This document shows, piece after piece, positions 18,691 to 63,154 of a stretch of DNA of 64,000 nt (its first letter is position 1; each line of letters opens with the position of its first letter). The notes beneath the pieces were generated by a model that worked only from the letters and a program-made list of their open reading frames with translations, did no database searches and was not told the DNA's origin. The stretch comes from an uncultured Candidatus Rokubacteria bacterium (GTDB lineage: Bacteria; Methylomirabilota; Methylomirabilia; Rokubacteriales; DASRDR01), in assembly GCA_963708025.1 (NCBI GenBank), contig CAVPSB010000014.1:448001-512000 (forward strand), written 5' to 3'. The translations under genes were made by a program, and so were the position numbers.

Positions 18691-19063
18691 GAGCAGGTTG
18701 TCTCGGTGCTCCGGCCGGGGCGGCGCTCGGTCATCAGGTTGACCAGATCGTAACACAGCTTCCGTTCTTACGACGCCAGCCGTGGGCGCCGAGATTCCGG
18801 CCGCCGCCCCCCGGCGGGGCGGCCCCGACCGGCCCCGGCCGCCCGGCCGCGACCGGGCGCGGGGTCCGCGTGCTATCATTCCGCGGACCCATTCCGGAGA
18901 TGAGAGTGCGGTGCATTCGGAGGCTTCCGGCTCCCCCCTCACCCCGGTGACCACCGGAGGGCGGGACGTCGCGAGGGCCGCAGGCCCGAGCCGTCCCGGC
19001 GATCCGGTCAAACGGAGGGGGGCTGGGGGGGTGGGCGGGAGGTCCCGAATTGAGGTGCGCGCC

Positions 19064-19531
19064 ATGGCGCTGAAGAAGCTCGGCCACGTCGTGCTGAAGG
19101 TACGGGACCTCGATCGGTCGGAGGCGTTTTACACGGGCGTGGTCGGCCTCCGGGTGACCGGGTGCCTCCCCGGGCGGATGGTGTTCTTCGGCGTCCCGGG
19201 GAACGAGGACTCGCACGACCTGGCCCTCTGGAAGGTGGGACCCGACGCGGCCGCTGCCGAGCCGAAGCAGGTGGGGCTCTTCCACGTCGCCTGGCAGGTG
19301 GAGCGTCCGGAGGACCTCGAGCCGCTGTACCGGCACCTCCTCGCCATGGGGGTGGCGGTTCAGGGAACGATGGACCACGGCGCCAACCTGTCCATCTACT
19401 TCGAGGACCCGGACGGCAACATGCTCGAGTTCACGTACGAGCAACCCCGCCAGGCCTGGCCCCCGGGCCAGAACCCCTTCGCCGGCCGCGAGCCGCTTCC
19501 CTTCGAGGACGCCGGCCGGACCCGGCGGTAG
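19064..19531 (+). CDS. VOC/glyoxalase family protein
   Basis: LGHVVLKVRD, HVAW, SIYFEDPDGNMLE motifs. Confidence 0.88.
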   Translation: MALKKLGHVVLKVRDLDRSEAFYTGVVGLRVTGCLPGRMVFFGVPGNEDSHDLALWKVGPDAAAAEPKQVGLFHVAWQVERPEDLEPLYRHLLAMGVAVQGTMDHGANLSIYFEDPDGNMLEFTYEQPRQAWPPGQNPFAGREPLPFEDAGRTRR

Positions 19532-19545
19532 CACGCCGCGTCCCG

Positions 19546-20466
19546 ATGGAGCACGTCCGGTTCGTCCTCCCGTTCCACACGGTCTTCTACACGCCCCACT
19601 ACCTGGCGGTCGCGCTCGGGTGCTTCGCCGAGGAAGGCCTGGAGGCCGAGCAGGCAACGCCGGCCCCGCCCAACGGGGTGGCCCGCGCGCTGCTGGCCGG
19701 CGAGGCGGACGTGGGGCTCTCGGGTCCGATCCGGGCTCTCGGGGCCGTGGATCGCGGGGAGGGACGGCTCGTCTGCGTGGCGGAGATCAACAGCCGGGTC
19801 GGCTTCTTCCTGCTGGGGCATTCGGCGGCGCAGGACTTCGCGTGGCGGGACCTGGTCGGGCAGCGTGTTCTCGTCTTCGCCGAGGCGCCGACGCCACGGC
19901 TGTGTCTGGAGTACCTCCTGGAGCGGCACGGCATCCGGGTCGGCTCGGTGGACATGGTCGCCGACATGCCGGCCGCACAGGCGGTGGAGCGATTTCGCGC
20001 CGGGCGCGCGGACTATCTGCTTCAGGGCCAGCCGCTCACCGAGCGGCTCCTGACCAGCGGGCAGGCTCACGTGGCCGTCGCCCTTGGCCCGGCGCTCGGC
20101 CCGATGGCCTTCAGCGCCTACCTGGTGACGCCGCGGCTCATGTCCGAGCGGCCGCACGTCCTCGACGCCGTGCTCCGGGCGCTCTACCGGGCCCAGCGCT
20201 GGCTGCACCGCCACCAGCCGGACGAGATCGCTGCCCTGGTGGCGCCGGCCTTTCCTGGCGAGGAGCGGGCGGTGCTGACCGCCGCCATCCGGCGCTACCT
20301 GGCCGGCAAGACGTGGGCGGTCGACCCGATCCTGCGCCGGCCCGGCTTCGACGCCCTCCAGGAGGTGCTCTTGCTTCGCGGCTTCGTCAAGCGCAGTCAT
20401 CCGTACGATGCCGTCGTCGATGCCAGCCGGGCCGAGGCGGCGGTCCGGGCCGTCGGGGTGGCCTGA
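19546..20466 (+). CDS. NMT1/THI5-like ABC substrate-binding protein
   Basis: FYTPHYLAVALGCFAEEGLE motif. Confidence 0.75.
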   Translation: MEHVRFVLPFHTVFYTPHYLAVALGCFAEEGLEAEQATPAPPNGVARALLAGEADVGLSGPIRALGAVDRGEGRLVCVAEINSRVGFFLLGHSAAQDFAWRDLVGQRVLVFAEAPTPRLCLEYLLERHGIRVGSVDMVADMPAAQAVERFRAGRADYLLQGQPLTERLLTSGQAHVAVALGPALGPMAFSAYLVTPRLMSERPHVLDAVLRALYRAQRWLHRHQPDEIAALVAPAFPGEERAVLTAAIRRYLAGKTWAVDPILRRPGFDALQEVLLLRGFVKRSHPYDAVVDASRAEAAVRAVGVA

Positions 20467-20544
20467 CGCCCGCGTTACGGCAGAAAGCACGGCCGCCCAG
20501 CACGGACCGCTTTGGCGCTTCGAGGACCCTAGGGAGGGGATCCG

Positions 20545-21705
20545 ATGGAGTTCAGCCTCACGGAGGAGCAGCGCCAGTACCAGGCCCTCGTCCGCGACTT
20601 CGCCGAGAAGGAGGTCGCGCCGCACGTCCGGGAATATGACCGGGCGGAGCGGTATCCGGTTGAGATCCTCAAGAAGATGGCGGGCCTCGGCTTCGTCGGG
20701 GGCACGATCCCCGAGGAATACGGCGGCCCCGGCCTCGATCCCCTCACGATGGCGCTCGGGATCGAGGAGATGTCGCGGGTCTGCATCCACATGGGGTCGG
20801 CGATGGGGCGGGCGGCCGGACTGGTCGGCGCCGGCATCCTCCAGTTCGGCTCGGAGGCGCAGAAGCGCCGGTACCTGGTGCCGGTGGCGTGCGGCGAGGT
20901 CTTCGCCGGCACGGCGGTGACCGAGCCCCACTCGGGGACAGACGTCGCCGCCATGGAGACGACGGCCGTGCGGAAGGGCGACGCCTACGTGCTGAACGGC
21001 TCGAAGACCTGGATCTCCGGGGTCGGCCTCGCCGCCTGGTACCTGACGTTCGCGACACTCGACCGGGCGAAGGGGCCGAAGGGAATCTGCGCCTTCATCG
21101 TGGAGCGGGGCGTCCCCGGCTTCAGCGAGCGCCCGATCCGGAACAAGCTGGCGTTCCGGCCGACCCAGGTGGGGGAGCTGACCTTCGAGGACTGCCGGGT
21201 TCCGGTGGAGAACCGGGTGGGGGGCGAGGGCGACGGGCTCAAGGTCGCGCTGTGCGCCGTCGAGAACGGCCGCCTGTCGGTGGCCTGCCGCGCTGTGGGC
21301 CTGGCCCAGGCCTGCCTGGACGAGTCGGCGCGCTACGCCCGCCAGCGGGTCGTGGGCGGGAGGAAGATCGCGGAGTACCAGCTGGTCCAGGCCAAGATCG
21401 CCGACATGGTGCTGGGCATCGAGTCGGCGCGCTTCCTGACGTACCGGCTCGCGTGGCTGAGGAGCCGGGGGGTCAAGCGGGCCCGACGGGAGGCGTCGGT
21501 CGCCAAGCTGTACGCCACCGAGATGGCCTTTCGGGCCGCCTCCGACGCCGTGCAGATCCACGGCGCCTACGGCGCCTCCGACGAGTACAATGTCGGCCGC
21601 TACCTCCGCGACGCGAAGTTCCTCCAGGTGGTCGAGGGGACGAACGACATCCACCGCGTGCTGATCGGCGAGTATGCGCTGGGGCTTCGGGACGAGTCCC
21701 GATAG
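20545..21705 (+). CDS. Acyl-CoA dehydrogenase
   Basis: TEPHSGTD, LNGSKTWIS, QIHGAYG, EGTNDI motifs. Confidence 0.93.
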   Translation: MEFSLTEEQRQYQALVRDFAEKEVAPHVREYDRAERYPVEILKKMAGLGFVGGTIPEEYGGPGLDPLTMALGIEEMSRVCIHMGSAMGRAAGLVGAGILQFGSEAQKRRYLVPVACGEVFAGTAVTEPHSGTDVAAMETTAVRKGDAYVLNGSKTWISGVGLAAWYLTFATLDRAKGPKGICAFIVERGVPGFSERPIRNKLAFRPTQVGELTFEDCRVPVENRVGGEGDGLKVALCAVENGRLSVACRAVGLAQACLDESARYARQRVVGGRKIAEYQLVQAKIADMVLGIESARFLTYRLAWLRSRGVKRARREASVAKLYATEMAFRAASDAVQIHGAYGASDEYNVGRYLRDAKFLQVVEGTNDIHRVLIGEYALGLRDESR

Positions 21706-21761
21706 CGGTCAACCTGACCGGCGCCGGTGAGCTGGACCCAAACCGCTTACAGGAGGCGAGC

Positions 21762-22991
21762 ATGAACGGACCGTTGACCCGCCGCGATTTCCTCGGAGGC
21801 GTGGTGGCCGCCACCACCGCCACCCTCGGGTTCCCCGCCGTGGTCCGGGCCCAGGCCCGGGAGCTGAAGGTCGGTCACATCCACCCGCTCTCCGGCTTCC
21901 TGGCCTTCGACGGCGGGCTTGTCGTCAACGGGCTCACGCTGGCGGTCGAGGAGGTCAACGCGGGGGGCGGGATCAAGTCGATGAGCGGGGCCCGGCTCAC
22001 CCTGGTCGGCGGCGACACCCAGGGCAAGGTCGAGGTGGGGATGGCCGAGTCGGAGCGGCTGATCCGGGACGGCGTGGTGGCGCTCATGGGTCCGTACCAG
22101 AGCCCGGTCGCCTACGCGGTCTCGCAGCTCGCGGAGAAGGAGCGGACCCCGTTCGTCATCACGGTGGCGGTGGCCGACAACGTGACGGAACGCGGGTTCG
22201 AGTACACCTTCCGGGTCCAGCCCAACGCGAAGGCGATGACGACGCGGAGTCTCGACCACCTGGCCGATCTGGCGAAGGCGAGCGGCGTCCCGGTGAAGAC
22301 GATCGCCCTCATGCACGAGGACGGCCTGTTCGGGAGTTCGATCGCGGGGCACCTGGAGCGGCACGCCCGGACGCTCGGCATGGACCTTGTGCTCAAGGTG
22401 GCGTACAACTTCCGCACCCCGGATGTCACGACCGAGATCACCAAGATCAAGGCGGCCCGGCCGGACCTGGTGGTCGTGAGCGGGTACTTCGGGGACGGGC
22501 TGCTCATCGCGCGCACGGCGGCCGAGGCCCGGCTCGAGACACGCGCGGTCATGGGGATCGCCAACGGCGGCTTCTCCAACCCGAAGTTCCTGGCCGACCA
22601 GCCCCAGCTCGCCGACCTCGTCATGGACGGCAACTACTGGCACAACCCGCGCAGCGAGCGGGCCAGGCGGGTGATGGAGGCCTACCAGAAGCGCTTCGGC
22701 TCGCCGATGTCTTCCCACTCCGTCCAGTCGTATAGCGCTCTGATGGTCCTGCGGGACGCGCTGGAGCGGGCGGGGAGCCCGGACCGCGCGAAGATCCGGG
22801 AGGCGCTGGTCACGACCAGTCTGGGCGACCATATCCTCCCCCAGGGGCCGATCCAGTTCGACAAGACGGGAGAGAACGTCAACGCCCAGCCGGCGCTCCT
22901 CCAGAACCAGGGCGGCAAGACCCTGGTCGTCGGCCCTGCCGCGTACGCGGAGGGGAAGGCGGTGTTCCCCGTCCCGCGCTGGTCACGGTAG
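21762..22991 (+). CDS. Branched-chain amino-acid-type ABC substrate-binding protein (Tat)
   Basis: LTRRDFL signal; HPLSG..EEVNAGGG motif. Confidence 0.88.
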   Translation: MNGPLTRRDFLGGVVAATTATLGFPAVVRAQARELKVGHIHPLSGFLAFDGGLVVNGLTLAVEEVNAGGGIKSMSGARLTLVGGDTQGKVEVGMAESERLIRDGVVALMGPYQSPVAYAVSQLAEKERTPFVITVAVADNVTERGFEYTFRVQPNAKAMTTRSLDHLADLAKASGVPVKTIALMHEDGLFGSSIAGHLERHARTLGMDLVLKVAYNFRTPDVTTEITKIKAARPDLVVVSGYFGDGLLIARTAAEARLETRAVMGIANGGFSNPKFLADQPQLADLVMDGNYWHNPRSERARRVMEAYQKRFGSPMSSHSVQSYSALMVLRDALERAGSPDRAKIREALVTTSLGDHILPQGPIQFDKTGENVNAQPALLQNQGGKTLVVGPAAYAEGKAVFPVPRWSR

Positions 22992-23191
22992 CCCGGTCGT
23001 GCCGGTGGCGCTTCGGCGCATCCGGGCGGGCGGCGCGCTGGCCTCGCGGCAGGCGGGAGGCGCGCGGGGTCCTCTGGCTCTCCGGCTCCCCCCCGGCCAC
23101 AGGCCGAAGGCCGTCCATCGGTGGGGGAGGGGGCCAAAGGCCGAAGGCCGTTCGAGGGATCGGGTAGGCGGGAGGTCCCGAACTGAGGACG

Positions 23192-24049
23192 GTGCTGTGG
23201 CAGGCGTGCGTGTCGGGACTCCTGATCGGCGGGGTCTACGCGCTGGTCGCCCTCGGCCTCACCCTGATCTTCGGCGTCATGCGCATCATCAACTTCGCCC
23301 ACGGCACGCTGATGATGCTCGGCATGTACGCCACCTTCTTCCTCTACAGCCTGGGCGGCGTCGATCCCTACCTCTCGGTCCTGCTGGTGGGCCCGGCCTT
23401 CTTCCTGGCCGGCGTGGCCCTCGAGCGCGGCGTGATCGCGCCGAACCTCGCCGCGCCGGAGTCGAACCAGCTCCTGCTCACCCTCGGCGTCGCGCTCTGC
23501 CTGGAGAACGCGGCGCTCGTCCTCTTCAGCCCCGACTACCGGTCGATCCGGCTGCCCTGGGCCTCGCACGCCCTCTTCGTCGGTGAGGCGGTCGTCAACC
23601 TGCCGCGGCTGATCGCCTTCGGCTCCTCGGTCGCGCTCGCGGTGGGGCTCTGGCTGTTCCTCAAGCGAACCGACCTCGGCAAGGCGATCCGGGCGGCGGC
23701 CGAGGAGCGGGAGGGGGCCCTCCTCGTCGGCATCGACGTCCGGCGGATCTACGCGGTCGCGTTCGGGCTGGGCTCGGCGCTGGTGGCGGTCGCCGGGAGC
23801 CTCGTCACGCCCTTCCTCTACGTGGCCCCGGACGTCGGGGACGTCTTCAACATCCTCGCCTTCGTCACCGTCGTGCTGGGAGGCATGGGGAGCTTCGTCG
23901 GCGCCCTGCTCGGCGGGTTCCTGGTCGGCCTCGCCGAGTCGCTGGGGGCGGCCGTGCTGCCGGGCTCCCTCAAGCAGCTCCCCATCTTCGTGCTCTTCGT
24001 CCTCGTCCTGCTCTTCCGCCCGACCGGCCTGTTCGGCCGGCGTGTCTGA
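23192..24049 (+). CDS. livH: LivH-type ABC permease
   Basis: GLTLIFGVMRIINFAHG; VLGGMGS. Confidence 0.88.
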   Translation: MLWQACVSGLLIGGVYALVALGLTLIFGVMRIINFAHGTLMMLGMYATFFLYSLGGVDPYLSVLLVGPAFFLAGVALERGVIAPNLAAPESNQLLLTLGVALCLENAALVLFSPDYRSIRLPWASHALFVGEAVVNLPRLIAFGSSVALAVGLWLFLKRTDLGKAIRAAAEEREGALLVGIDVRRIYAVAFGLGSALVAVAGSLVTPFLYVAPDVGDVFNILAFVTVVLGGMGSFVGALLGGFLVGLAESLGAAVLPGSLKQLPIFVLFVLVLLFRPTGLFGRRV

Positions 24050-24095
24050 GGAAGCGACTGGGTGCTGGCGCCCGAGCAGTTCTCGAAGTAGCGGG

Positions 24096-25043
24096 ATGCG
24101 CCGGGGACGGACTCTCGCCTGGCTCGCCGCCGGGGCTCTCGCCATCGCCGCACCGCCGTTCGCCTCGGCCTACGTCGTCCACGTCCTGATCCTCGTCCTT
24201 TTCTACGCGTACCTGGGCACCGCCTGGAACATCCTGGGGGGCTACGCCGGCCAGTTCTCCTTCGGCCACGCCGCGTTCTTCGGGATCGGCGCCTACACCT
24301 CGACGCTCCTCCTCGCCCGCGCCGGCGTGAGCCCCTGGCTCGGCCTGTGGGCGGGTGGCCTCCTCGCCGCCGGCTTCGGCTGCTTCGCCGGTTACCTGGC
24401 CTTCCGTTACGGGCTGCGCGGCCCGTACTTCGCGCTGGTGACGCTCGCCTTCGCCGAGATGCTGCGGCTGATCGCCGTGAACTGGGCCGCCATCGGGGGG
24501 CCGATGGGCATCCTGATCCCGCTGCCGAAGGGCGGGGACGCGTGGTGGCGCCTCCAGTTCCGGGAGAAGCTGCCCTACTACTACGTGATGCTGGCGCTCG
24601 TCTCACTCGTGCTCTGGCTCACGCGCCGCCTCGAGCGCTCCCGCCTCGGCTACACGCTGGCGGCGATCCGGGAGAACGAGGATGCCGCCGAGGCCTCGGG
24701 CGTCGACACGGTGTCGGCCAAGCTGGTGGCGATGGCGCTCTCGTCGTTCCTGACGGCGCTCGGCGGGACCTTCTACGCCCAGTACTACTCGTTCATCGAC
24801 CCGACGCTCGCCTTCGGCGTCCCGGTGTCGGTGGAGATCCTCCTGCGGCCGATCGTCGGCGGCCCGGGGACGCTGCTGGGCCCGCTGCTGGGCTCGGTCG
24901 TGCTGACCCCGCTCTCCGAGCTGACGCGCTGGCTGATCCGGGGGCGGCCGGGGGTCGACGTCATGATCTACGGCGCGCTCCTGGTGCTGGTGATCACGTT
25001 CCTGCCTCGAGGTCTGGTGGGCCTGGGCCGGGGGCGCGGCTGA
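24096..25043 (+). CDS. livM: LivM-type ABC permease
   Basis: GYAGQFSFGHAAFFGIGAY; AIRENEDAA. Confidence 0.88.
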   Translation: MRRGRTLAWLAAGALAIAAPPFASAYVVHVLILVLFYAYLGTAWNILGGYAGQFSFGHAAFFGIGAYTSTLLLARAGVSPWLGLWAGGLLAAGFGCFAGYLAFRYGLRGPYFALVTLAFAEMLRLIAVNWAAIGGPMGILIPLPKGGDAWWRLQFREKLPYYYVMLALVSLVLWLTRRLERSRLGYTLAAIRENEDAAEASGVDTVSAKLVAMALSSFLTALGGTFYAQYYSFIDPTLAFGVPVSVEILLRPIVGGPGTLLGPLLGSVVLTPLSELTRWLIRGRPGVDVMIYGALLVLVITFLPRGLVGLGRGRG

Positions 25044-25046
25044 CCC

Positions 25047-25775
25047 GTGGCCCTGCTCGAGGTGCGCGGCGTCACGAAGCGGTTCGGCGGCCTGGCGGCG
25101 GTGTCCGGGCTGAGCTTCGACGTGGGGGATGGCGAGCTTCTCGGGATCATCGGGCCCAACGGGGCGGGGAAGACGACGCTGTTCCATCTCATCACCGGCT
25201 TCCACCGGCCGACCGCCGGCGAGATCCGCTTCGAGGGCCGGCCGATCACCGGCCTCCGCCCCTACGCCGTGTGTCGGCTCGGCATCGCCCGCACCTTCCA
25301 GATCGTCCAGCCGTTTCCCGGGCTCACGGTCCTCGCCAACGCGATGGTCGGGGCATTCAGCCGAACCCGGGAGCCGGCGGCGGCGGCGGCGGCGGCCCGC
25401 GAACTGCTCGGCGTGGTGGGGCTCACGGCCAAGGCCGGCCACGAGGCCCGGACCCTCACGCTCTCGGAGCGGAAGCGGCTCGAGGTGGCCCGCGCGCTGG
25501 CGACCCGGCCGCGGGTGCTGCTCCTCGACGAGGTGATGGCGGGGCTCACGGCGGCGGAGGTGTCCTCGATGATGGAGCTGTGTCGCCGGCTCCGGGGCGA
25601 GGGGCTCACGATCCTGGTGATCGAGCACGTGCTGCGGGCGGTCATGGCGCTCTCCGACCGCCTGGTCGTGCTGGACCACGGCGAGAAGATCGCCGAGGGG
25701 CCGCCGGACGCGGTGGCACAGGATCCCCGGGTGATCGAGGCATACCTCGGCACCGCGCGGCCCGAGAGCGCGTGA
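25047..25775 (+). CDS. livG: LivG-type ABC ATP-binding protein
   Basis: GPNGAGKTT; RTFQ; LLLDE. Confidence 0.9.
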   Translation: MALLEVRGVTKRFGGLAAVSGLSFDVGDGELLGIIGPNGAGKTTLFHLITGFHRPTAGEIRFEGRPITGLRPYAVCRLGIARTFQIVQPFPGLTVLANAMVGAFSRTREPAAAAAAARELLGVVGLTAKAGHEARTLTLSERKRLEVARALATRPRVLLLDEVMAGLTAAEVSSMMELCRRLRGEGLTILVIEHVLRAVMALSDRLVVLDHGEKIAEGPPDAVAQDPRVIEAYLGTARPESA

Positions 25776-25849
25776 ACGAATCGGCTTCGTCCGAAGCCCC
25801 CCTCCCCCCAGCCAAAGGCCGAAGGCCGTCGATCAACCGGGGAGGGGGG

Positions 25850-26581
25850 TTGGGGGGTAGGAGGGAGGTCCCGAATATCCTCGCCATCGAGGATCTCCGG
25901 GCCGGGTACGGCGACGTGGTGGTGCTGCGGGGCGCGTCGCTGGTGGTGGGGCCGCGCGAGATCGTCGCCCTGGTCGGCGCCAACGGCGCTGGCAAGACCA
26001 CGACGCTCCGGGCGGTCTCCGGCCTCGTCCGCCCCAGTGGTGGCGCGATCCGCTTCGAGGGGGAGCGCATCGAGACGCTGTCCCCGCACGAGATCGTGGG
26101 CCGCGGCCTCCTCCAGGTGCCCGAGGGCCGCAAGATCTTCCCGTCGCTGACGGTCGAGGAGAACCTGGACCTCGGCGCCTATGCGCGCGCGGCCAAGGCC
26201 GGGCGGGCCCAGACGCGGGCCCGGGTGTTCGATCTGTTTCCGATCCTGGCCGAGCGGCGACGGCAGGCCGCAGGAACGCTCTCAGGCGGCGAGCAGCAGA
26301 TGCTGGCGATCGGCCGGAGCCTGATGGGCGGGCCGCGCCTGCTCATGCTCGACGAGCCCTCCCTCGGCCTGGCCCCTCAGGTGGTCGATCGGATCTTCGA
26401 CGTCGTCCGGGCGATCAACGCCGACGGCGTCCCGATCCTGCTCGTCGAGCAGAACGTCCAGCGCTCGCTGGCGATCGCCGATCGAGCCTATGTGCTCGAG
26501 CAGGGGATCGTCGCCCTGTCGGGACCGGGCCGGGAGCTGCTCGAGCGGGACGAGGTCCGCAAAGCCTATCTCGGACTGTGA
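25850..26581 (+). CDS. livF: LivF-type ABC ATP-binding protein
   Basis: GANGAGKTT, LSGGEQQ, DEPSLGLAP; start is TTG 25850 inside a repeat element or GTG 25772. Confidence 0.88.
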   Translation: MGGRREVPNILAIEDLRAGYGDVVVLRGASLVVGPREIVALVGANGAGKTTTLRAVSGLVRPSGGAIRFEGERIETLSPHEIVGRGLLQVPEGRKIFPSLTVEENLDLGAYARAAKAGRAQTRARVFDLFPILAERRRQAAGTLSGGEQQMLAIGRSLMGGPRLLMLDEPSLGLAPQVVDRIFDVVRAINADGVPILLVEQNVQRSLAIADRAYVLEQGIVALSGPGRELLERDEVRKAYLGL

Positions 26582-26731
26582 GAGCGAGTGCGACTCAACC
26601 AGCTCGTCCGACATTTCTCCTCTGACGTTCACCGACCTTCGACAGCCTCCGACTCCCTCCGACTCCCCCTCCCCCCAGTGGGTGGGGGAGGGGGGTGGGG
26701 GGGGGAGGTGGGAGGTCTCAAAGGAGCGATC

Positions 26732-36972: not shown

Positions 36973-37222
36973 CTACGGGTTGGGTAGCTCGAGCAATCCG
37001 ACCAGGCGCGCGCGGTCGAACCCCACGACGACTTCTTCCCCGACCACGATCACCGGGACGGCCATCTGACCGGTCCGCCTGATCAGCTCCTCCCGGCCCT
37101 CGACGTCCGTGCGTGACGTCGATGTCGGTGAACGCGACCCCCTTGGACGAAAGAAACTCTTTCGCCGCTTTGCAGGGGCGTCAGGTGGGGGAACTATAGA
37201 CTGTGACAGGCTTTTCAGTCAC
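36973..37222 (-). CDS. Selenocysteine (UxxC) glutaredoxin/NrdH-like redoxin, ~82 aa, one apparent extra base near 37111
   Basis: GTG 37222: MTEKPVTVYSSPT-TGA(37183-37181)-RPCKAAKEFLSSKGVAFTDIDVT / TDVEGREELIRRTGQMAVPVIVVGEEVVVGFDRARL..NP*. Glutaredoxin motifs (cis-Pro VP, VGFD) continue after the TGA. Confidence 0.85.
37136..37183 (-). promoter_or_regulatory. Bacterial SECIS element
   Basis: mRNA UGA-CGCCCCUGCAAAGCG-GCGAAAG[AGUUU]CUUUCGU-CCAAGGGGGUC; loop 22 nt after UGA with G at loop position 2; lower stem GAC/CCCC with GGGG/GUC. Confidence 0.75.
37146..37221. repeat. Left att site: 76-bp perfect direct repeat
   Basis: Identical to 62685-62760. Confidence 0.95.
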
Positions 37223-38538
37223 GTGGCGTCCTCCGATATCGGGTCACCATTGGCTGGTTGTTGCGGATTTGTTGCGGATTGTACCGGCCTTGGCGCTCCG
37301 TCGTCGAGCCGATTCACGATCACCCGGCGCCGGGTGGGGACCAGGTGTCCATAGTAGTCCACGGTAATTTTGATGCTCGAATGGCCCAGTTGTTTGCTGA
37401 CATAGTGCAGGATGGCCTCGCCGTCCTGTCCGTGGTCCACCGCCTCAGCGATGAGTCGTGTCGCGTAAGTATGCCTCAACCCGTGCGGTTTCCGGTATCG
37501 AACACGGGCCCGCGACAGGAGTCGCCGCCAGATGTTCGAGAACGTCGTGTGGCCGATGGGTTCTTCGGCTCGGTACCACCCCGAGAGGCGGCGGTGGGCC
37601 TGAACCCGGAAATCTCGTCCTGACGGCGTACGTTTCTCGTGGGCTGTCACCCGGCTCTCGGATGGGGGCGGGAACAACCACGGGCCCGCGGGCCCCTCGC
37701 GCTGACGGATCGCCAGGTAGGCCTCCATGTCCGCGACGAGCTGATCGCTCATGTCCACCCGGCGCACCTGGTGGCTCTTCGGGGCGTTGAATCGAGCGGA
37801 GCCGTGCTTGCGCCCACGCCGGCCCTCCGTCCGGCGCACCCACAGCTGACGCACCGCGAGGTCGACGTCTGCGACCTGGAGGCATCGGCCCTCGCCAGGG
37901 CGAAGGCCGGTCCGGGCAAGCGTCAGTACGAGCACGTAGATCTCGCGTGGGAACTCCGCCCGTGCCACGTCTATGAGCTGGCGCAGCTCCTCCGCGGTGA
38001 ACACGGAGAGCCCCACCTCGCGCCGGCGTTCCACATGGCTCGCAAGGAGGAACCGTCCAGCCCGGGCGGCCGGGTTCGCCTGGAGCAGCCCATCCTCCAT
38101 CGCACTGTTCAGACACGAACGCAGGACGCTCAGGCGGAGTGCACGCGTTTTCGATCTGGTACCACTCTGGCGCATGGCGTCCAAGGCCGTCAGAATCTCC
38201 TCGCGACGGATGGCCGTCAACCTGCGGGAGCCGAGCAGCGGTAGCCAGTGCTTCCGAACGATCCGCTGATAGAGATCGGCAGATCCGATCGCGAGATCCT
38301 CCCGCCGGGCAAGCCACGTTTCGGCGTATCCGGCCAGGGTGACGTCGGAGCCTCTCCTCGCTTCGAGGATTCCGAGATCGTCGAGTGAGAGTCGACGCTC
38401 GAGCTCGGCCGCCGCCAGGTACGCCGCCTTGCGCCCGCCCCGGCCGCGCAGTCGGGTCGAGATACTCTTGCGTTGCCCCTTGTGGTCGACCACGAGATAC
38501 CACATCCCGTTCTTGCGGAGCCGCGGCTTGACGCCCAT
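37219..38538 (-). CDS. int: Tyrosine recombinase/integrase
   Basis: Catalytic set appears intact: TGLR, PKS, HGLRH, LGH, YY; N-terminal arm-binding and SAM-like regions. Confidence 0.95.
   Translation of the reverse strand: MGVKPRLRKNGMWYLVVDHKGQRKSISTRLRGRGGRKAAYLAAAELERRLSLDDLGILEARRGSDVTLAGYAETWLARREDLAIGSADLYQRIVRKHWLPLLGSRRLTAIRREEILTALDAMRQSGTRSKTRALRLSVLRSCLNSAMEDGLLQANPAARAGRFLLASHVERRREVGLSVFTAEELRQLIDVARAEFPREIYVLVLTLARTGLRPGEGRCLQVADVDLAVRQLWVRRTEGRRGRKHGSARFNAPKSHQVRRVDMSDQLVADMEAYLAIRQREGPAGPWLFPPPSESRVTAHEKRTPSGRDFRVQAHRRLSGWYRAEEPIGHTTFSNIWRRLLSRARVRYRKPHGLRHTYATRLIAEAVDHGQDGEAILHYVSKQLGHSSIKITVDYYGHLVPTRRRVIVNRLDDGAPRPVQSATNPQQPANGDPISEDAT
37259..37280. promoter_or_regulatory. 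Putative integrase arm-type sites (left)
   Basis: TGTTGCGGATT x2 in tandem; same motif at 62599-62616. Confidence 0.7.
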
Positions 38539-38556: not shown

Positions 38557-38826
38557 CTACCGTCCGAGAAACTCGCGCAGCACCGGCGCCACCAGTCGCT
38601 CGACGTCGGATCGACCCTGATTGCGGTACCGGGCTATCCATTCATCGAAATCCGAGCGACGGACCAGGATCTTTCCCTCGACGCGGTAGCACGGGAGCGG
38701 ATGGACTGAGTGGACGAGCCGGTCGCGTAGCCACCGGATCGAGCAGCCCGAGTACGTGGCCAGCGCCCGCAGCGACAGGTAGGGATCCAGCCGCGTCGAC
38801 AGCTCGAGGTTGTCGACCACGACCAA
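38557..38826 (-). CDS. Excisionase-like HTH protein (recombination directionality factor)
   Basis: YLSLRALATYSG..LPCYRVEGKILVRRSDFDEWI; immediately upstream of the integrase. Confidence 0.8.
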   Translation of the reverse strand: MVVVDNLELSTRLDPYLSLRALATYSGCSIRWLRDRLVHSVHPLPCYRVEGKILVRRSDFDEWIARYRNQGRSDVERLVAPVLREFLGR

Positions 38827-40007: not shown

Positions 40008-40800
40008 AGATCGGTGCCCCGCCCCCGAAGGGGCCCGAAAGCCGACGAGATGGAAGACGAACAGCGGCCCCCCCCACCGGATCAGACCGCCGCCGTCCCA
40101 ACTCGCCACCGACCTCCCACGACAGCGCGCGCGGGAGCCGAACGCGCCACGGTGTACCCCGATGTGTCATGCACGCTCTTTCCTCCGCAACCCGATCGAC
40201 CCAGCCCACCGCGACCCAGGGCGATCCGTCGGACGCCACACTTCGTCCCTCACCGACGGCCCGATCCGCAGGAGACCGGACTGCCACTCCCAACCCGACC
40301 CGACAATCCGACACGATCGCTGACAGACTCCTCCCGAGGGTGACGGGGGCCGACGTCCAAGATCGGTGCCCGCCCCCGAAGGGGCCCGAAGGCCGACGAG
40401 ACGGAAGACGGACAGCGGACCTCCCCACCGAATCAGACCGCCGCCGCCTCAGGCGATCACCGACCTCCCACGGCAACGCGCGCAGGAGCCGAAGGCGCCG
40501 ACCCCTCACCGACGACCGCGTTGCTCGGCCCCGGTCTTCCGCGTCCATCCGACAGCCCGTGGTCACCGCGCCACTCCCACAACCGCGACCCACCGACACC
40601 GCGACACGGCCGCAGGCAGACTCCTCCCGAGGGTGACGGGGGCCGACGTCCACGATCGGTGCCCCGGGCCCGAAGGGCGACGAGAGGGAAGATGAACAGC
40701 GGACCCCCAGCGAATCAGACCGGCGCCGCCCCAGGCCACCGCCGACCTCTCACGGCAGCGCGCGCGGGAGCCGAAGGCACCGACCCCTCACGGACGATCA
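40008..40800. repeat. Three degenerate direct repeats of a ~150-190-bp unit, ~300-350 bp apart
   Basis: GATCGGTGCCC..GGGCCCGAA..GACGAGA.GGAAGA..ACAGCGG..ATCAGACCG..CCGACCTC.CACG..GCGCGC.GGAGCCGAA at ~40009, ~40361, ~40654; CAGACTCCTCCCGAGGGTGACGGGGGCCGACGTCCA at 40324 and 40617. Confidence 0.8.
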
Positions 40801-43661: not shown

Positions 43662-46600
43662 ATGACCACCCTGGCTCTCCACAAGCCATGGGGCTACGGC
43701 CAAGGGGGCTTCGCCTCACATATGCTCGTAGCTGAACCGGACATTCCGCGGCCGCCACGTCGTGCACCGGGTAGGCCGCATCGCGTCGTCTCCGCATGTC
43801 TGGTTTCCTTGCGCTTCGCGGGCCGGAGCGCCCGGTCGGCTCTCCTGGCCCTCATGGCGCTCGGTCTGCTCGCCCCCGGTACCCTGGTGGCGGAGGAGCC
43901 AGGATCCCCGAAGGCCGTTCTCATCCTGCTCCCGGACCAGCCGACCCTTCCAGGGACCCAGCTCCTGCTGGCCGGGATACGCGGGCCGCTCGTCACGACC
44001 TGGGGGTCCCGCGTCAGCATCTACAGCGAACACGTGGACATCGAACGCTACCAGGGGGCGGACGTCGAGCGCAGGGTTCGTGATGCGTTCCAAGCCAAGT
44101 ACGCGGGCGTGCCGCTCGATGCCATCGTCGCCTTTCAACCCTCCCCGCTCGGGTTCCTGGCCCGCTGGGGCCGTGACCTCTGGCCCGGGGTGCCGGTCGT
44201 GGTGGCCGGGGTGGACGAGCTCTTGCTGACCCGGCTCGAGCTTCCTCCAAGGGTGGCCGCCATCCCGATGCGGTACGACGTCGAGGGCACGGTGCGCCTG
44301 GCCCTCCGCCTGCTGCCGGAGACCCGGCGAGTGGCGTTGATCAGCGGCGTGTCGCCGCAGAATCGGCACTTCGCCGACCTGCACCGGGAGCGGCTTCGAG
44401 CCTTCGGCGACCGGATGGAGCTGATCGACCTGACCGGCCTGAGCCTGGAGGAGATGCTGACGCGCGTCGCCGCGCTTCCCGAACACTCGATCCTCTTGGT
44501 GTCTCTGGTCTGGATCGACGGTGCCGGGCGATCCCTCGTCGGGCTCGACCTCCTGCCCCGGGTGTCGGCCGCGGCCAACCGCCCCGTGTTCTCCGTGTTC
44601 GGCCCGACGGTTGGGGCCGGCGCCGTGGGGGGCTCGATGGTCGACCTCCTGGAGCTGAGCGCGGAAGCGGGCCGGGTCGCGGTGCGCGTCCTGCGCGGCG
44701 AGGCGGTGCCGCCGTCGGAGGCCAGCCAGGTGAGCCAGCAGGTCGTCGTTGACTGGCGCCAGCTCCGGCGCTGGGGGCTCGACGAGCACCGGCTGCCGCC
44801 CGGCGCGCTGGTGCTCCACCGCGAGCCGACCCTGTGGGAGCAATACCGCTGGGCGGTCGTCTCGTCCCTGGGTGTTCTGGTCAGCCAGACGCTCGTCGTC
44901 GTGGCGCTGCTCTTCGAGCGGCGCCGGCGGCGGCGCGCGCAGGTCGCACTCGAGGACCGCCTGCGCTTCGAGACGCTGCTGACCGAGATCTCCACCGGCT
45001 TCGCCGACCCGCCGGGCGGCGTGCTGCGGGAGCCCGACCGAACACTCCGTCCGACGAACGGCGTCGAGGAGCAGGTCCGCGAAGGCCTCCGCCGGATCGC
45101 CGAAGGGCTCGGCGCGGAGGGCGCGAGCCTCTGGCGGTTCTCGACCGCAGGAGCGTCTCTCGCCGTGTCGTGGTCGCAGGAGGGGCTCAGCGCACCGCCC
45201 TCTGAGATCTCGCTCGATGACTATCCCTTCCTGCGGACGAGGGTGATGCGTGGAGAGGCCCTGCGGTTCCGGAGTCTGGACGAGCTGCCACCCGAGGCGG
45301 GCGTCGATCGGCAGAGTCTCTTGCGACTGGGGGTCCGGTCGTTGGTCGTGGTCCCGTTTGAAGCCACGAGCGCGGAGCCCCGCGCGACCGCCTGCCTGAC
45401 GCTGCGGAATGGGGAGACCTGGCCGGACGACGTCGTCCAGCGGCTTCGGACGGTCGGAGAGATGTTCGCGGGCGCCCTGGCCCGGGCCCAGGCGGTGGCC
45501 GCGCTGAGCGAGAGCGAGGCGCGGTTTCGCTCCATGGCGGATACCGCGCCCGTGCTTATCTGGATGTCCGGTCTCGACAAGGGCTGCACGTTCTTCAACA
45601 AGGGCTGGCTGGACTTCACGGGACGCACCATGGCGAGTGAACTGGGCAGTGGTTGGGTCGAGGGCGTGCATCCCGATGATGTCAACCGCTGTCTCGAAAC
45701 GTGTGTCAGCGCCTTCGACCGTTGACAATCGTTCGCGACGGAATACCGCCTGCGCAGGCACGATGGGGAGTACCGCACCATCGTGGACAAGGGCGTGCCG
45801 CGGTTCGCGCCGGACGGGACATTTCTCGGGTACATCGGGTGCGGCGACGACATCACCGAGCGCAAGCGAGGCGAGGAGCTGCGACGGCAGGTGCTGGAAG
45901 CGGCTCCAAACGCGATGATCATGGTCAACCAGGAGGGCCGGATCACCCTGGTGAACGCCGCCGCGGAGACGGTCTTCGGCTACGCCCGCGAGGAGCTCAT
46001 CGGGTCTGCCATCGAGATCCTGATCCCCGAGCGCTTCCGGTCTGACCACCCGCGCGATCGCACCCACTACTTCGCCGATCCCACGGTGCGGATGATGGGG
46101 GCGGGGCGCGAGCTCTACGGTCGTCGCAAGGACGGTAGCGCGATTCCGGTCGAGATCGGGCTCACGCCCGTCCAGACACCGGAAGGGCTGTTCGTGCTGG
46201 CGTCCGTCGTCGACATCACCAGGCGAAAAGCCGCCGAACTGGAGGAGCAGCGGCGTCGCGCGGAGCTCGCCCACGCGGCGCGCATCTCCACCATGGGCGA
46301 GCTGGCGGCGTCGCTGGCGCACGAGCTGAACCAGCCGCTCACGGCGATCCTGGCGAACGCCCAGACCGCCCAGGAGTGGCTCGCGGCCCCCGCCCCCGAC
46401 CTCGCGGAGCTCCGGGACATGGTGGACGACATCGTCGCCGAGAACATCCGGGCGAGCGAGGTGATCCGGCGGATGCGTGCGATGCTCAAGAAGGGCGAGC
46501 TCCGCTCGGACGCCGTTCGACCTCAATGAAATCGTCCGCGAGGTCACGCGGCTGATCGCCAACGACGCCCTGCTCCGCGGCGCCTCGATTGACCTCGACC

Positions 46601-47004
46601 TGTCGCCGGCGCTGTCGAGGGTCCGGGGCGACGCCGTCCAGTTCCAGCAGGTCCTGCTGAACCTGCTCGTCAACGGACTCCACGCGGTGGCCGATGAACC
46701 CCCGCACCGGCGCCGGTTGATCGTCCGCACCGCCGGCGTGGACGGCGGCGTCGAGGTGTCGGTGCGGGACACGGGCAAGGGGATCGCCGAGAGCGACCTC
46801 CCCCAGGTCTTCACGCCGTTCTTCACTACGAAGGGCGAGGGCCTCGGGGTCGGACTGTCCATCAGCCAGTCGATCGTCGAGACGTTCGGCGGCCGGATCT
46901 GGGCCGAGAACGAGCCCGATGGCGGCGCGATCTTCCGGATCCGCCTGCCGGCCGGCGCGACCGCAGCCGGGCCACCGGGACGCACCGCTGATCTTCCTGG
47001 TTGA
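43662..47004 (+). CDS. Sensor histidine kinase (periplasmic domain-TM-GAF-PAS-PAS-HisKA-HATPase), FixL/NodV-like; frameshifts near 45722 and 46510
   Basis: [60 protein letters not shown]. Confidence 0.85.
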
Positions 47005-54676: not shown

Positions 54677-54689
54677 TGAAAAAGACAGG

Positions 54690-54790
54690 CGAACCTGGCC
54701 CGGAACCCGGCGGTCCTGGCGAGCGGAGTGAGCCCGGTCGTCGCGGCGGTCGAGGAGGTCCGCCGTATTCTCGGGCTGCACGCACGTCTG
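54690..54790 (+). pseudogene. Internally deleted remnant of the alpha/beta-hydrolase 3' end
   Basis: Matches ~58840-58899 joined to ~59115-59155 through TCGA microhomology. Confidence 0.6.
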
Positions 54791-54971
54791 AGGAGGACCA
54801 CGAGTGAACGCCAAGGGCGAGGTCCTCATCTGAGGACCAGGAGGGCACCGGTGGGTGGAGGGAAGCCGCAGTAAGTCGCGCCATCACGCGATCGTAGCGC
54901 AGGGTCAGGGACGAGGCAGCGGAGCCGTGGCCGCAGGGAGCGTTCACCATGTCAGTGACAAGGAGGGGCGG

Positions 54972-57287: not shown

Positions 57288-59188
57288 ATGAGCTCCGACG
57301 TGCGGCTGCGCCCGCATCGGCTCGCGCTCGTCTCGGCGCCCTCGGGCTCTGGCGCCTGGCGGCCTGCGCGGGCCCGGTGGGCACGGTCCGGGTCGACCCC
57401 AAGGTCGTCCATCGCCACCTCGGCCGGAGCGCCATCACGACGGGCGAGCCGAGCCTGGCCCGACGCGCAACCTGCTCTTCGAGCGCGGTCTGCTTCGAAG
57501 CCTTCGACGAACGCCCGGAGGCCGCCATTGCCGAGCTGCACCGGGCGATGGTCGCGGCGGGGGGGGACCCGGACCTGCTCTTCGCCCTCGCCGAGCTCTC
57601 CTTCCTCCACGGCCAGGCGACCACGAAGCCCGACTACCACCTGGCCGCGGCCGTCTACGCCTACGCCTTCCTGTTCCCCGAAGGGCCCGGGTGCGCTCCC
57701 CGGGCGGTTCGACCCGCGCCTGCGGATCGCGGCGGATCTCTACAACTGGGCGCTCACGGCGAGCCTTCGCCTCGGAGGACCGCTCGGAGGTCGTCCCGCG
57801 GGGCGGCACGTTCACGCTGCCCTTCGGGCCGATCGAGGTGGCGTTCGATCCCGCCGCGCTCCGCGCCGGGGATCGGGAGCTCTACCGGTTCATCGCCGAC
57901 CGCGGAGCTGGAGGTGCACGGGCTGGCCATGCGGTATCGCTGGCCGGGCCTCGGCGCCCCGCTCGCCGCCTCCACCCGGCCCATCGATGCCTCGAGACCC
58001 GGCCGGGACCTGGTGGCGCCGCGGCTCCAGGTGCCGGTGACGGCCCTGCTCCGGATCGCCGAGGCCCGGCACGCCCTCGTGCAGGGGCGCCCGCTCGCGG
58101 GCACGCTCGAGCTCCACCTGGCCTGGGACGCGGAAACGGTCTCGATCGCCGGCGAGCCGGTCCCGCTCGAGAACGAGCCGACGGCGGCGCTCGCGCTCAC
58201 GTTCACCGGCGTGCCGATCATGGAGCTCGAGCTGCTCGGGTTCCTGGGCCGGCTGACCGGGCTGATGCGCAGCGGCCCCCGCTCGTCTCCGCCACGCCGT
58301 ACCGTCCCGGGCTCATCCCCGTGGTCTTCGTGCACGGCACGGAGTCGAGCGTGGTCCGCTGGGTGGAGATGTACAATCGTCTGCTGGCCGATCCCGAGAT
58401 CCGCAGCCGCTTCCAGTTCTGGTTCTTCCAGTACGATTCCGGCCAGCCCATCGCGCTGTCCTCTCTCCACCTGCGCGAGGCCCTGACGGCGGCGGTGGCG
58501 CGGCTCGACCCCGAGGGCAAGGACCCGGCCCTGCGCCGGATGGTCCTGATCGGGCACAGCCAGGGGGGTCTGCTGGTCAAGATGCAGGTCATCAGCAGCG
58601 GTGATCGGCTCTGGAACGCGGTCAGTCGCAAGCCGCTCGATCAGCTGGTCCTGTCCGACCACGACTCGCGACCTGCTCCGGCGTGGGCTGTTCGTCGAGC
58701 CGCTGCCCGAAGTCTCTCGCGTGGTGTTCATCTGCACGCCGCATCGGGGCAGCTTCGTCGCCGGACGCCATATCATCGCCAACCTCGTCCGGCGACTCCT
58801 GACCCTGCCCTTCGCTCTCACCGGGGTGGCGGCGGACATCGCCCGGAACCCGGACGCCCTGGCGAGCGGGGTGAGCCCGGTCGTCCCGTCGGCGGTCGAC
58901 AACATGTCGCCGCGTCACCCCTTCCTCCGGGCCCTGCAGGAGATTCCCGTCGCCCCGTCCGTCACGGTCAACTCCATCGTCGCGGTCGAGGGGGACGGGC
59001 CGGTCGAGCAGGGCAACGACGGCGTGGTGGAGTACTCGAGCGCCCACATCGAGCCGGTCGAGTCCGAGCTGGTCGTGAAGTCGAGCCATTCCACGCAGGG
59101 CAATCCCCACACCATCGAGGAGGTCCGCCGCATTCTCCGGCTGCACGTGGGTCTGACGACGGGCACGGTCCCGCTGGAGGCCCGATGA
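57288..59188 (+). CDS. Alpha/beta hydrolase (lipase-like) lipoprotein, multiple frameshifts
   Basis: LAAC lipobox; PVVFVHG, IGHSQGG, TPHRGS, NDGVVEY, SSHS. Confidence 0.75.
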
Positions 59189-59271: not shown

Positions 59272-59847
59272 ATGAAGAGCTCCGTCGTGGGAATACTGAG
59301 TCTCGCCGCCGTCCTGGTGGGATCGGTGGTTTCGGCGCTCGGCCCGGCCGCCCTGGCTGGCGAGCTAGCGGGCGTGACGCTGCCCGACACGCTGAAGGCC
59401 GGCGAGAAGACGTTGAAGCTGAACGGGCTGGGCCTCAGGAAAAAGGCCGTGTTCGAGGTCTACGTGGGCGGGCTGTACCTCGAATCACCCTCCAAGGACG
59501 CGGCCGCCATCCTCACGGCCGACCGGGCGAAGGCCATCCGCATGCATTTCCTGCGCGATCTGACGAAGGCGCAGCTCGTCGAGGCCTTTCAGGAGGGCTT
59601 CGAGGCCAACGTGAAGGACCGGGCCCCCCAGAAGGCCGCGTTCGACAGGATGCTCGCGCTCGTGCCCGACGTGAAGATTGGCAGCACGCTGACGTTCACG
59701 TACCTGCCGGGAAAAGGCACGACGCTCTCTGCCGGGAGCAATGAGCTGGGTGTCTTCGAGGGGAAGGGGTTCGCGGACGCGGTCTTCGCGATCTGGCTGG
59801 GTCCCAAGCCGCCTACCGAGGATCTGAAGAAGGGGCTGCTGGGCTGA
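59272..59847 (+). CDS. Chalcone isomerase-like periplasmic protein
   Basis: LKLNGLGLRKK..VYVGGLYL; FAIWLG..LKKGLLG. Confidence 0.85.
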   Translation: MKSSVVGILSLAAVLVGSVVSALGPAALAGELAGVTLPDTLKAGEKTLKLNGLGLRKKAVFEVYVGGLYLESPSKDAAAILTADRAKAIRMHFLRDLTKAQLVEAFQEGFEANVKDRAPQKAAFDRMLALVPDVKIGSTLTFTYLPGKGTTLSAGSNELGVFEGKGFADAVFAIWLGPKPPTEDLKKGLLG

Positions 59848-62495: not shown

Positions 62496-62566
62496 GCTCG
62501 GCACGGCCGCCCCGGCCGGCGAGCTGGCGGACGCGACGTTGCCCGACACGCTGAAGGCCGGCGAGA
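62496..62566 (+). pseudogene. Diverged 71-bp copy of the chalcone-isomerase-like gene 5' region
   Basis: 64/71 identical to 59337-59407 by manual alignment. Confidence 0.75.
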
Positions 62567-62598
62567 CCCGCACAGGGGCAAAGTGCTCCTGGAAGACC

Positions 62599-62616
62599 TG
62601 TTGCGGATTTGTTGCG
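62599..62616. promoter_or_regulatory. Putative integrase arm-type sites (right)
   Basis: TGTTGCGGATT-TGTTGCG, same motif and orientation as 37259-37280. Confidence 0.7.
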
Positions 62617-62668: not shown

Positions 62669-62761
62669 TTACTTAGCGTGGACCGACGAAAGAAACTCTT
62701 TCGCCGCTTTGCAGGGGCGTCAGGTGGGGGAACTATAGACTGTGACAGGCTTTTCAGTCAT
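62669..62761 (-). pseudogene. Truncated 5' stub of the Sec-glutaredoxin (30 aa if UGA is recoded)
   Basis: AGGAG RBS (62775-62771), ATG 62761: MTEKPVTVYSSPT-U-RPCKAAKEFLSSVHAK*; TACCAT -10-like box at 62783-62778. Confidence 0.8.
62685..62760. repeat. Right att site: 76-bp perfect direct repeat
   Basis: Identical to 37146-37221. Confidence 0.95.
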
Positions 62762-62869
62762 TCCGACACTCTCCTCTATGGTACCCATTGGCCCGAGTGG
62801 CCCCGTTTTGCGCCCGTTCGCGCCGCGTCGTTCCGGCTCCAGGGCTGGGGTCGCCGCGGGGAAAGACCG

Positions 62870-63125
62870 GCACCGCTGTCCGGAGTCATCGTCCAGCCGG
62901 TTCGTGATCTCCCGTTGGCCGCCCGGAAACGGTGGATGTAGCAGTTCATCGTCTTTTGGATGCTTCGGTGCCGCATCTGGCTTCAGCAGCAGCACCTCGC
63001 CCCCCCGGAGGCCTGTCCGGGATGATCAGCACGATGGGATAGAGGGCTGGGAAGTGTCGCTCAGCGGCGAGCAGCAAGGTTCTCAGCTCCGGCTCAGGGA
63101 ACAGTTTCCGGGCGTCGACGGCACG
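62870..63125 (-). pseudogene. Heavily deleted remnant of a homologous tyrosine integrase
   Basis: Across frames: ELRTLLLAAERHFPALYPIVL / RTGLRGGEVLLL / HRSIQKTMNCYIHRF / PGGQREITNRLDD, versus intact Int ELRQLIDVARAEFPREIYVLVL / RTGLRPGE / HSSIKITVDYYGHL / PTRRRVIVNRLDD. Confidence 0.75.
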
Positions 63126-63154
63126 GCTGCCCCTTGGCCGGGTCAAGGCCGGGC

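Follow-up and report, generated by a model that had tools for sequence, protein, structure and literature searches.

The window analysed here is a 64,000-nt stretch of an uncultured Candidatus Rokubacteria genome (G000:C14:448001-512000; genome G000 comprises 8.17 Mb in 49 contigs), and it holds an integrase-bearing island whose two ends carry the same 5′ part of a gene for a glutaredoxin-like selenoprotein. A repeat search identified a single perfect 76-nt direct repeat in the window, at 37146-37221 and 62685-62760, with a spacing of 25,539 nt, and the flanks outside the two copies showed no relation to each other in alignment. On the minus strand, this repeat corresponds to the 5′ portion of the selenoprotein gene and covers its first 26 codons. 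The identity starts at the second base of the start codon, which is GTG on the integrase side and ATG in the far copy, and it ends at 37146, in the last pair of the upper helix of the selenocysteine insertion sequence (SECIS) hairpin, 2 nt beyond a perfect DNA palindrome; this agrees with the initial annotation of the locus, in which the identity between the attachment site (att) copies stopped at the base of the upper stem. The features that define the island are the following.

37146 to 37221, minus strand: att repeat on the integrase side, attR-type (P arm of the element, block, remaining gene), from the repeat search and alignment
62685 to 62760, minus strand: far copy of the att repeat, attL-type (upstream DNA, block, P′ arm of the element), with a truncated reading frame of 31 codons
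36976 to 37222, minus strand: restored copy of the glutaredoxin-like (YruB-like) selenoprotein gene, from translations, with PF00462 matching both halves
37219 to 38538, minus strand: gene (int) for a tyrosine integrase of 439 amino acids (Pfam PF00589, E 6.7e-19)
38557 to 38826, minus strand: small HTH_17 protein adjoining int, a candidate excisionase or directionality factor (Pfam PF12728, E 4.8e-07)
37222 to 62684, no strand assigned: island body with int, the HTH_17 protein and cargo (Pfam)

The integrase scored 68.7 bits against PF00589 (cut-off 27.1), and R213, K254, H352, R355, H386 and Y396 are invariant in a four-sequence integrase alignment (A4); from knowledge of the motif, we take these R-K-H-R-H-Y residues to fill the catalytic roles. 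In a test for the N-terminal arm-binding and SAM-like domains of lambda-type integrases, PF22022 (25.3 bits against a required 27) and PF14659 (18.1 against 22.6) both stayed below their cut-offs, and an NCBIfam search with the HTH_17 protein was without match. Because the repeats occur together with the adjoining integrase, the HTH_17 protein and cargo, and because phage and conjugation families found no match among the 20 island open reading frames (ORFs) scanned with Pfam, the 25.5-kb stretch between the repeats is an integrative genomic island.

The restored gene starts with GTG at 37222-37220, encodes a UxxC motif and stops at 36976. Its family is present in 176 of the 183 genomes of the order (the tallies over these 183 genomes, and those over 251 genomes of the phylum given below, take in three unpublished genomes, G010, G151 and G152, on which no sequence-level statement rests), and nearly every orthologue or paralogue among the matches listed has one in-frame TGA. 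An intact orthologue from locus L009 reached 84.1 bits against TIGR02196, just below the cut-off of 88.55, and YruB-like is the best description. In the window, the frame of the restored gene changes after codon 37, with an extra base at 37112. This base is missing from all covering contigs of runs X1, X2, X3 and X5 (four runs from two studies; one contig is 98% identical to the window), and without it the window protein reads on like its relatives. The extra base is therefore probably an assembly error or a strain difference, and not a sign that the island has killed the gene. The restored gene is intact on contig C39 of genome G172 and, if base 37112 is discounted, in the window as well. In the far copy, the frame enters unrelated DNA and meets a stop five codons later.

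The SECIS hairpin

The inner end of the repeat falls in the following features of the selenoprotein gene.

37181 to 37183, minus strand: in-frame TGA, the selenocysteine (Sec) codon, codon 14; cysteine (Cys) in the Cys-type orthologue at locus L027
37139 to 37178, minus strand: SECIS element, from its own fold, a consensus fold (13 sequences) and the covariation seen among 46 distinct sequences
37146 to 37166, minus strand: SECIS upper stem-loop, RNA GGCGAAAG-AGUUU-CUUUCGUC, from the fold

The outermost pair of the upper helix joins 37146 with 37166, and the lower stem is formed by CCCCU and AGGGG. As DNA, the upper stem contains a perfect 6+5+6 palindrome, CGAAAG (37148-53) and CTTTCG (37159-64) around a 5-nt spacer, which can also be read as 5+7+5. 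The initial annotation had described CGAAA (37148-52), GAAACTC (37153-59) and TTTCG (37160-64); these letters are correct, the palindrome is one pair longer than was claimed, and the gene and its RNA lie on the minus strand.

The folding energy of the hairpin is ordinary (z = -1.22; 28 of 200 shuffled sequences fold equally well), and its significance derives not from this energy but from conservation and covariation. In 49 of the 50 Sec genes read, the stem begins 18 nt past the UGA, with a GU(U/A) loop. Thirty loci were read, 29 of them Sec-type, and the 14-mer CGAAAGAGTTTCTT is exact in 26 of these 29, synonymous positions included; L025 and L045 are one base off and L034 has a compensated stem. 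Across the order, the 14-mer has 92 matches in 76 of the 183 genomes, as against 1 for the reversed control. These counts fit the proposal of the initial annotation that such a site would be hard for the host to mutate away. Covariation is apparent among 46 distinct sequences: pair (18,36) is GC in 20, AU in 17 and GU in 8, pair (19,35) is CG in 36 and AU in 9, and pair (22,32) is AU in 34, UA in 7, CG in 4 and GC in 1. Twenty more distant paralogues (L193-L212) have a hairpin at equal distance past the UGA, with stems that are different yet complementary. The sole Cys-type orthologue seen (L027, genome G177), in which CxxC aligns with UxxC, is without the hairpin. Rfam holds no family for the hairpin and returned nothing relevant. 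The window genome encodes the Sec machinery, namely tRNA-Sec (76.2 bits, cut-off 47), selB (371.9, cut-off 242.25) and selA (597.8, cut-off 267.9), clustered within 5 kb at G000:C32:201569-206431. Given that it is near-invariant in orthologues, covaries in paralogues, is missing from the Cys-type orthologue and occurs in a genome with Sec machinery, the hairpin is, on this comparative evidence, a real SECIS.

At least two further groups of Sec-glutaredoxin paralogues, YTQPGU... and YTN(V/I)GU..., have their own covarying SECIS stem at equal spacing. One of the groups has the inner 15 nt of the target hairpin and could offer a secondary site.

Position of the crossover

In the part of PMC10111431 cited here, tyrosine integrases are said to demand identity at an exchange segment of about 7 bp, longer blocks being present only as replacement sequence in genes, and the core is localised by comparing diverse instances. 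The relatives that we found through the integrase are metagenome-assembled genomes (MAGs) of Candidatus Rokubacteria. The integrase-linked copies of the window, G172 and G173 share one common architecture, and wherever the 3′ end of a close-clade integrase is assembled, the gene block follows directly. In G172, contig C39 carries int (95% identical), the block and then the remaining gene; contig C75 carries int (~86% identical, frameshifted), the block and then foreign DNA, and is an attP-like or tandem-internal junction; and contig C13 has other upstream DNA, the block and then foreign DNA as in C75, to which it is 96.7% identical over 3,001 nt. In G174, a far-type copy lies 33,961 nt upstream of the gene on the same contig, and the two copies differ at 5 places from codon 11 to the hairpin; the longest block that they share exactly is that of the hairpin, at 16 nt. 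Genome G046 belongs to a different family of the order, and its 5′ gene part, equipped with a ribosome-binding site of its own, breaks off in the 3′ arm.

The element-side junctions end after ...CTTTCGTC in the window, after ...GAGTTTCTT in G172 (C13 and C75) and G174, and after ...CTTTCG in G046. The junctions of these four element types are at most 5 nt apart, in or just past the 3′ arm of the hairpin, and the att boundaries of homologous elements thus lie at the SECIS stem, as the initial annotation had implied. Beyond the block, BLAST detected no significant similarity among the P′ DNA of the window, G172, G174 and G046 elements; a resemblance by eye between the P′ arms of G172, G174 and the window was rejected on this result. 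The exact identity blocks spanning the hairpin measure 76 nt in the window, 39 nt between C13 and C39, 18 nt between C75 and C39 and 16 nt in G174, and the intersection of all att-pair identity blocks is the 14-mer CGAAAGAGTTTCTT, which spans the 5′ arm and the loop and takes in 3 nt of the 3′ arm.

Because four junctions with unrelated P′ DNA coincide within 5 nt and the identity common to them is the 14-mer, we consider it probable that strand exchange occurs within or immediately next to the upper SECIS stem-loop and that the 5′ part of the selenoprotein gene is the attachment site. The crossover itself would lie inside the 14-mer. The overlap GAAACTC (plus strand) fits the 14-mer with two bases to spare and may be one among several possible windows of 6-8 nt. 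The earlier claim of strand exchange at the SECIS loop is thus partly supported: the coinciding junctions and the 14-mer favour recombination at the hairpin, and the 5-7-5 symmetry is lost in the attP-type copies of G172 and G174, which read CTTCG.

In the mechanism that we propose, an island with a tyrosine integrase and a small HTH_17 protein would attach to the 5′ part of the selenoprotein gene. Its attP would carry a replacement 5′ end, in which a Shine-Dalgarno sequence precedes the GTGA that joins start codon and integrase stop, and codons 1-26 extend as far as the hairpin; upon integration, the gene would be rebuilt behind int, and the resident 5′ part would be left as a stump at the far end. 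The SECIS stem, which as DNA is an inverted repeat, would probably supply with its two arms a pair of core-type integrase sites around the overlap, in the way that tRNA stems do for tRNA-targeting integrases.

A crossover elsewhere in the 76 nt, such as one near the start codon or in the invariant sequence that surrounds the UGA (ACCTGACGCCCCTGCAA), would make the hairpin a chance fragment end, which we regard as unlikely. The window alone, with a block that is perfect over 76 nt and hence does not localise the crossover, is compatible with one anywhere in it. In addition, 17 nt around the UGA are invariant in 7 of 7 aligned copies, including that of G172 C5 with its diverged hairpin, and the similarity of C13 and C75 of G172 (~95-97%) begins at about codon 3-5 and continues unbroken across the hairpin and through 3 kb of P′ DNA. 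Such a crossover, however, leaves unexplained why four junctions with unrelated P′ DNA are at most 5 nt apart, and the G174 copies, with their 5 differences between codon 11 and the hairpin and their 16-nt exact block at the hairpin, speak against it. Were the crossover near the start codon, codons 5-26 of attP would be pointless and the end of the fragment would be left unfixed.

A different emphasis comes from the translation signals of the rebuilt gene. The TGA stop of int overlaps the GTG start of the restored gene (GTGA), and GGAGGA lies 8 nt upstream of this start, within the int reading frame. The remaining gene receives its Shine-Dalgarno sequence and start codon from the integrase-side copy, together with codons 1-26 in the correct frame, and the GTGA overlap with a Shine-Dalgarno sequence in the int 3′ end recurs in all intact integrase-linked copies, so that the rebuilt gene must be expressed from element-side signals. 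It could be argued from this that a coding sequence or promoter-proximal position is targeted for regulatory reasons, placing the selenoprotein under int-linked transcription, with the SECIS coincidence secondary. Such targeting is compatible with a crossover at the hairpin but gives no reason for the position of the junctions, and we hold it to be highly improbable as an alternative.

Two doubled motifs flank the presumed core.

37258 to 37276, minus strand: CGCAACA twice, 11 nt apart, in the 3′ end of int; candidate arm-type site (P arm)
62598 to 62616, minus strand: doubled CGCAACA, co-oriented, 68-89 nt inside the far end of the island; candidate arm-type site (P′ arm)

We hypothesise that these doubled CGCAACA motifs are arm-type sites. 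The P-side pair holds a constant place in 7 of 7 integrase-linked copies, at -117/-106 from the loop (within 1 nt), and lies at -126/-115 in G163. Its letters vary jointly in both copies of the motif, being CGCAGAA in G172 C5 and CGCAACC in G163. By count, CGCAACA is not significantly enriched in the window (5 occurrences against 2.3 expected; 9 of 100 shuffles reach 5). A non-coding stretch after the block of the third integrase (L085, G172:C5, 3560-3700) contains TTGGGCAGCAT twice, 11 nt apart, in the style of the CGCAACA pairs and with another sequence.

Further observations, like the lack of localisation in the window, weigh against a crossover at the hairpin. The P′-side pair, at +82/+93, occurs in the window element alone, and there is none in the P′ arm of G172. 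The attP-type copies of G172 and G174 have CTTCG where the gene has CTTTCG, and with it the 5-7-5 (6-5-6) palindrome is lost; this could reflect a true single-base difference in the C′ site, or P′ DNA may begin there. In G174, the 6 kb around the gene contain no integrase and the far copy is decayed, so that this genome provides no clean att pair. In G172 C5, which has a 66-72% identical integrase, the exact identity of the block to the gene stops ~10 nt before the hairpin; the hairpin region is diverged (loop GAGTAT), 9 of 12 bases matching through the loop and none thereafter. A target with this variant is missing from the 183 genomes, and the block may be a relic. The 76/76 identity in the window would be surprising were the far copy part of an old and strongly diverged integrase remnant (described below), and the combination would call for the extra assumption of an earlier conversion or replacement of the resident block. 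Finally, all data come from MAGs, with 7-8% contamination and indel errors.

Several candidates for additional junctions were rejected. A fit of the G172 C5 junction to another hairpin variant was not borne out, as the corresponding 12-mer has 8 matches against 5 for its control in the 183 genomes, C5 alone being in a glutaredoxin context. Contig C472 of G046 proved to be a different paralogue with no integrase nearby, and not the partner of the far-type junction of that genome. Other 14-mer matches lie in an unrelated context (G050 C212), in a decayed pseudogene (G117), in a paralogue at a contig end (G144) or in a Sec-glutaredoxin paralogue (L081, G126:C182) with a 22-nt deletion that begins directly past the 3′ arm of the hairpin and shifts the frame.

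Probable reuse of the site and content of the island

Close relatives of the integrase were found in the window, in G172 (four places) and in G173. Integrase matches occur in 8 of the 183 genomes of the order at E 1e-30 and in 4 of the 251 genomes of the phylum at E 1e-45, and the phylum-wide search of 251 genomes revealed no close relatives outside family f1. In G163, a 43-47% identical integrase lies directly 5′ of a different Sec-glutaredoxin paralogue, with the hairpin CGAGAG-AGUUG-CUCUCG; a search of this fragmented genome for the second att copy found the query alone. Six other integrases, of 33-41% identity, have other neighbours. No glutaredoxin gene was located near the best 80 of 245 metagenome relatives of the integrase (all at most 43% identical), and viral contigs yielded four distant integrases and no match to the UGA-to-hairpin pattern.

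A decayed integrase gene probably adjoins the far copy.

62761 to 63155, minus strand: probable remnant of an integrase gene, decayed and with an internal deletion, immediately upstream of the far copy, from weak profile matches

The 400 nt upstream of the far copy contain three collinear weak integrase-profile matches in three frames (E 0.0011 for one piece and 0.018 for the other two), with controls at 0.5 or above; the same region had no Pfam match, and tblastn gave E 2.6. An isochorismatase-like gene follows the remnant region upstream of the far copy. The far copy may not be the displaced native 5′ end of the gene, as it probably stands behind an old integrase remnant and not behind a native promoter. 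Integrase remnants lie directly upstream of the gene in other genomes, namely G170 (E 7e-29), G175 (1e-17) and G172 C13 (1e-5), which suggests that the integration site has been used repeatedly and that the apparently native 5′ ends of genes in this family may be partly element-derived. In our locus set, the remnants correspond to window positions 62761-63155, to L019 and L020 upstream of the gene, and to L084 (G172 C13).

Decay on this scale also bears on the possibility that the island is a fossil, its repeats stemming from an old event, RecA-type recombination or gene conversion, and its palindrome serving as a SECIS only. Among the contigs of four runs mapped to the window, there was no attP circle or empty-site joint, and the stretches without cover, like the loose ends at 37190 and 37126-37146, were traced to orthologues from other organisms. 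The rarity of close integrase relatives (4 of the 251 phylum genomes, none in the best 80 metagenome loci or in viral contigs), the frequency of decayed copies and remnants, and the frame-breaking extra base of the restored gene point the same way. Yet the 76/76 repeats, the intact 439-residue integrase with all catalytic residues and the adjoining HTH_17 gene point to a recent, integrase-made event, the extra base is missing from every covering contig of the four runs, and homologous recombination would not put four junctions at one spot. A fossil is, in our judgement, decidedly unlikely, and the island with its crossover at the SECIS hairpin would still be active.

A broader scenario, which we offer tentatively and rather doubt, is that of an integrase clade specialised on SECIS hairpins, with members matched to paralogue variants (CGAAAG/CUUUCG in the window, CGAGAG/CUCUCG in G163). 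Repeated integration and decay would then have replaced, throughout a bacterial family, the promoter of the host gene as well as its start codon and codons 1-26; much of the seemingly native 5′ end would stem from elements, and the gene would be expressed behind integrase remnants.

The cargo of the island comprises, by Pfam, a GAF/PAS sensor, PAS-HisKA and HATPase, a LuxR-type response regulator, an OMP beta-barrel, DUF1254/DUF1214, Lnb_N and an MscS channel, and the G+C content of the island is similar to that of its flanks. The PAS-HisKA and HATPase_c parts of one histidine kinase lie in overlapping ORFs in different frames (45783-46529 and 46477-47004), which may reflect a single-base assembly indel. 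A unit of ~131 nt is present in three copies at 40018-40781 (spacings 351 and 282; identity 86% and 60%), and this Pfam-empty stretch of the island also holds a 72-nt pair at 40300 and 40593. Diverged duplications of 83-90% identity occur in the cargo region, between 54688-54802 and 58831-59167 and between 59337-59407 and 62496-62566. To the left of the island (19018-26723), G-rich repeats of 33-45 nt ending in GGGAGGTCCCGAA are found at several intergenic places.

Relation to known integration systems

Integrases favour tRNA and other RNA genes for their conserved, symmetric sequence, and Williams is reported to have described, in 2002, tRNA stem arms as symmetric integrase sites around a 7-nt loop. 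Elements of the icd type, which use a protein-coding gene, replace its 3′ end. In the island described here, by contrast, it is the 5′ end of the gene with its translation start and Sec codon that is replaced, and the presumed core coincides with an RNA structure needed for Sec insertion. What the two have in common, as far as icd-type sites are described in the cited part of PMC10111431, is an identity block that begins at the crossover core, reaches as far as the gene part that is replaced and leaves the gene functional.

The closest parallels in logic are the islands in tRNA and tmRNA genes (Islander; anticodon-loop and T-loop subsites), in which a tyrosine integrase likewise targets the DNA of a conserved RNA stem-loop. 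There too, according to the portions of PMC4383910 and PMC10111431 drawn on here, a replacement piece regenerates the split gene, the displaced fragment stands at the other end, and tandem arrays and decayed copies occur. Unlike in these islands, the target in the window is a cis-acting mRNA hairpin in a protein-coding gene and not an RNA gene. Also unlike in most tRNA islands, the replacement concerns the 5′ part of the gene and brings along a ribosome-binding site and a start codon that is joined to the stop of the integrase; Islander, in the excerpt of PMC4383910 used here, counts 3,760 islands with a 3′ tDNA fragment versus 159 with a 5′ fragment. The temperate phage phi-Ef11 in ffs (4.5S RNA) is another case of a structured-RNA target other than tRNA, on the evidence of the cited part of PMC12540744, although its target is an RNA gene, unlike the coding-region element considered here.

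The resemblance to lambda Int and attP lies in an integrase gene beside the att site, a small HTH protein and a candidate inverted repeat at the core, together with co-oriented doubled motifs, as candidate arm-type sites, that flank the presumed core at distances of ~106-117 nt and ~82-93 nt. Unlike in lambda, the arms are 6+5+6 (or 5+7+5) in attB and 4+8+4 in some attP-type copies, and the P′ motif is found in one element. A literature search that combined SECIS or selenocysteine with integrase or integration site, at the level of titles and the beginnings of abstracts, found no integration at a SECIS.

Integration at a SECIS would extend the logic of tRNA islands to a recoding signal of an mRNA. 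Protein code, RNA structure and recognition by the Sec machinery jointly fix the site, whose nucleotides are invariant in much of an order of uncultured soil bacteria. If our interpretation is correct, it would constitute a new class of attB and provide a natural integrase and att pair with a short, defined target of 14-21 nt. It would also mean that the translation start of a host selenoprotein, along with its Sec codon, can be taken over by a mobile element, and in annotation, the 5′ ends of such genes may have to be regarded as element-derived.

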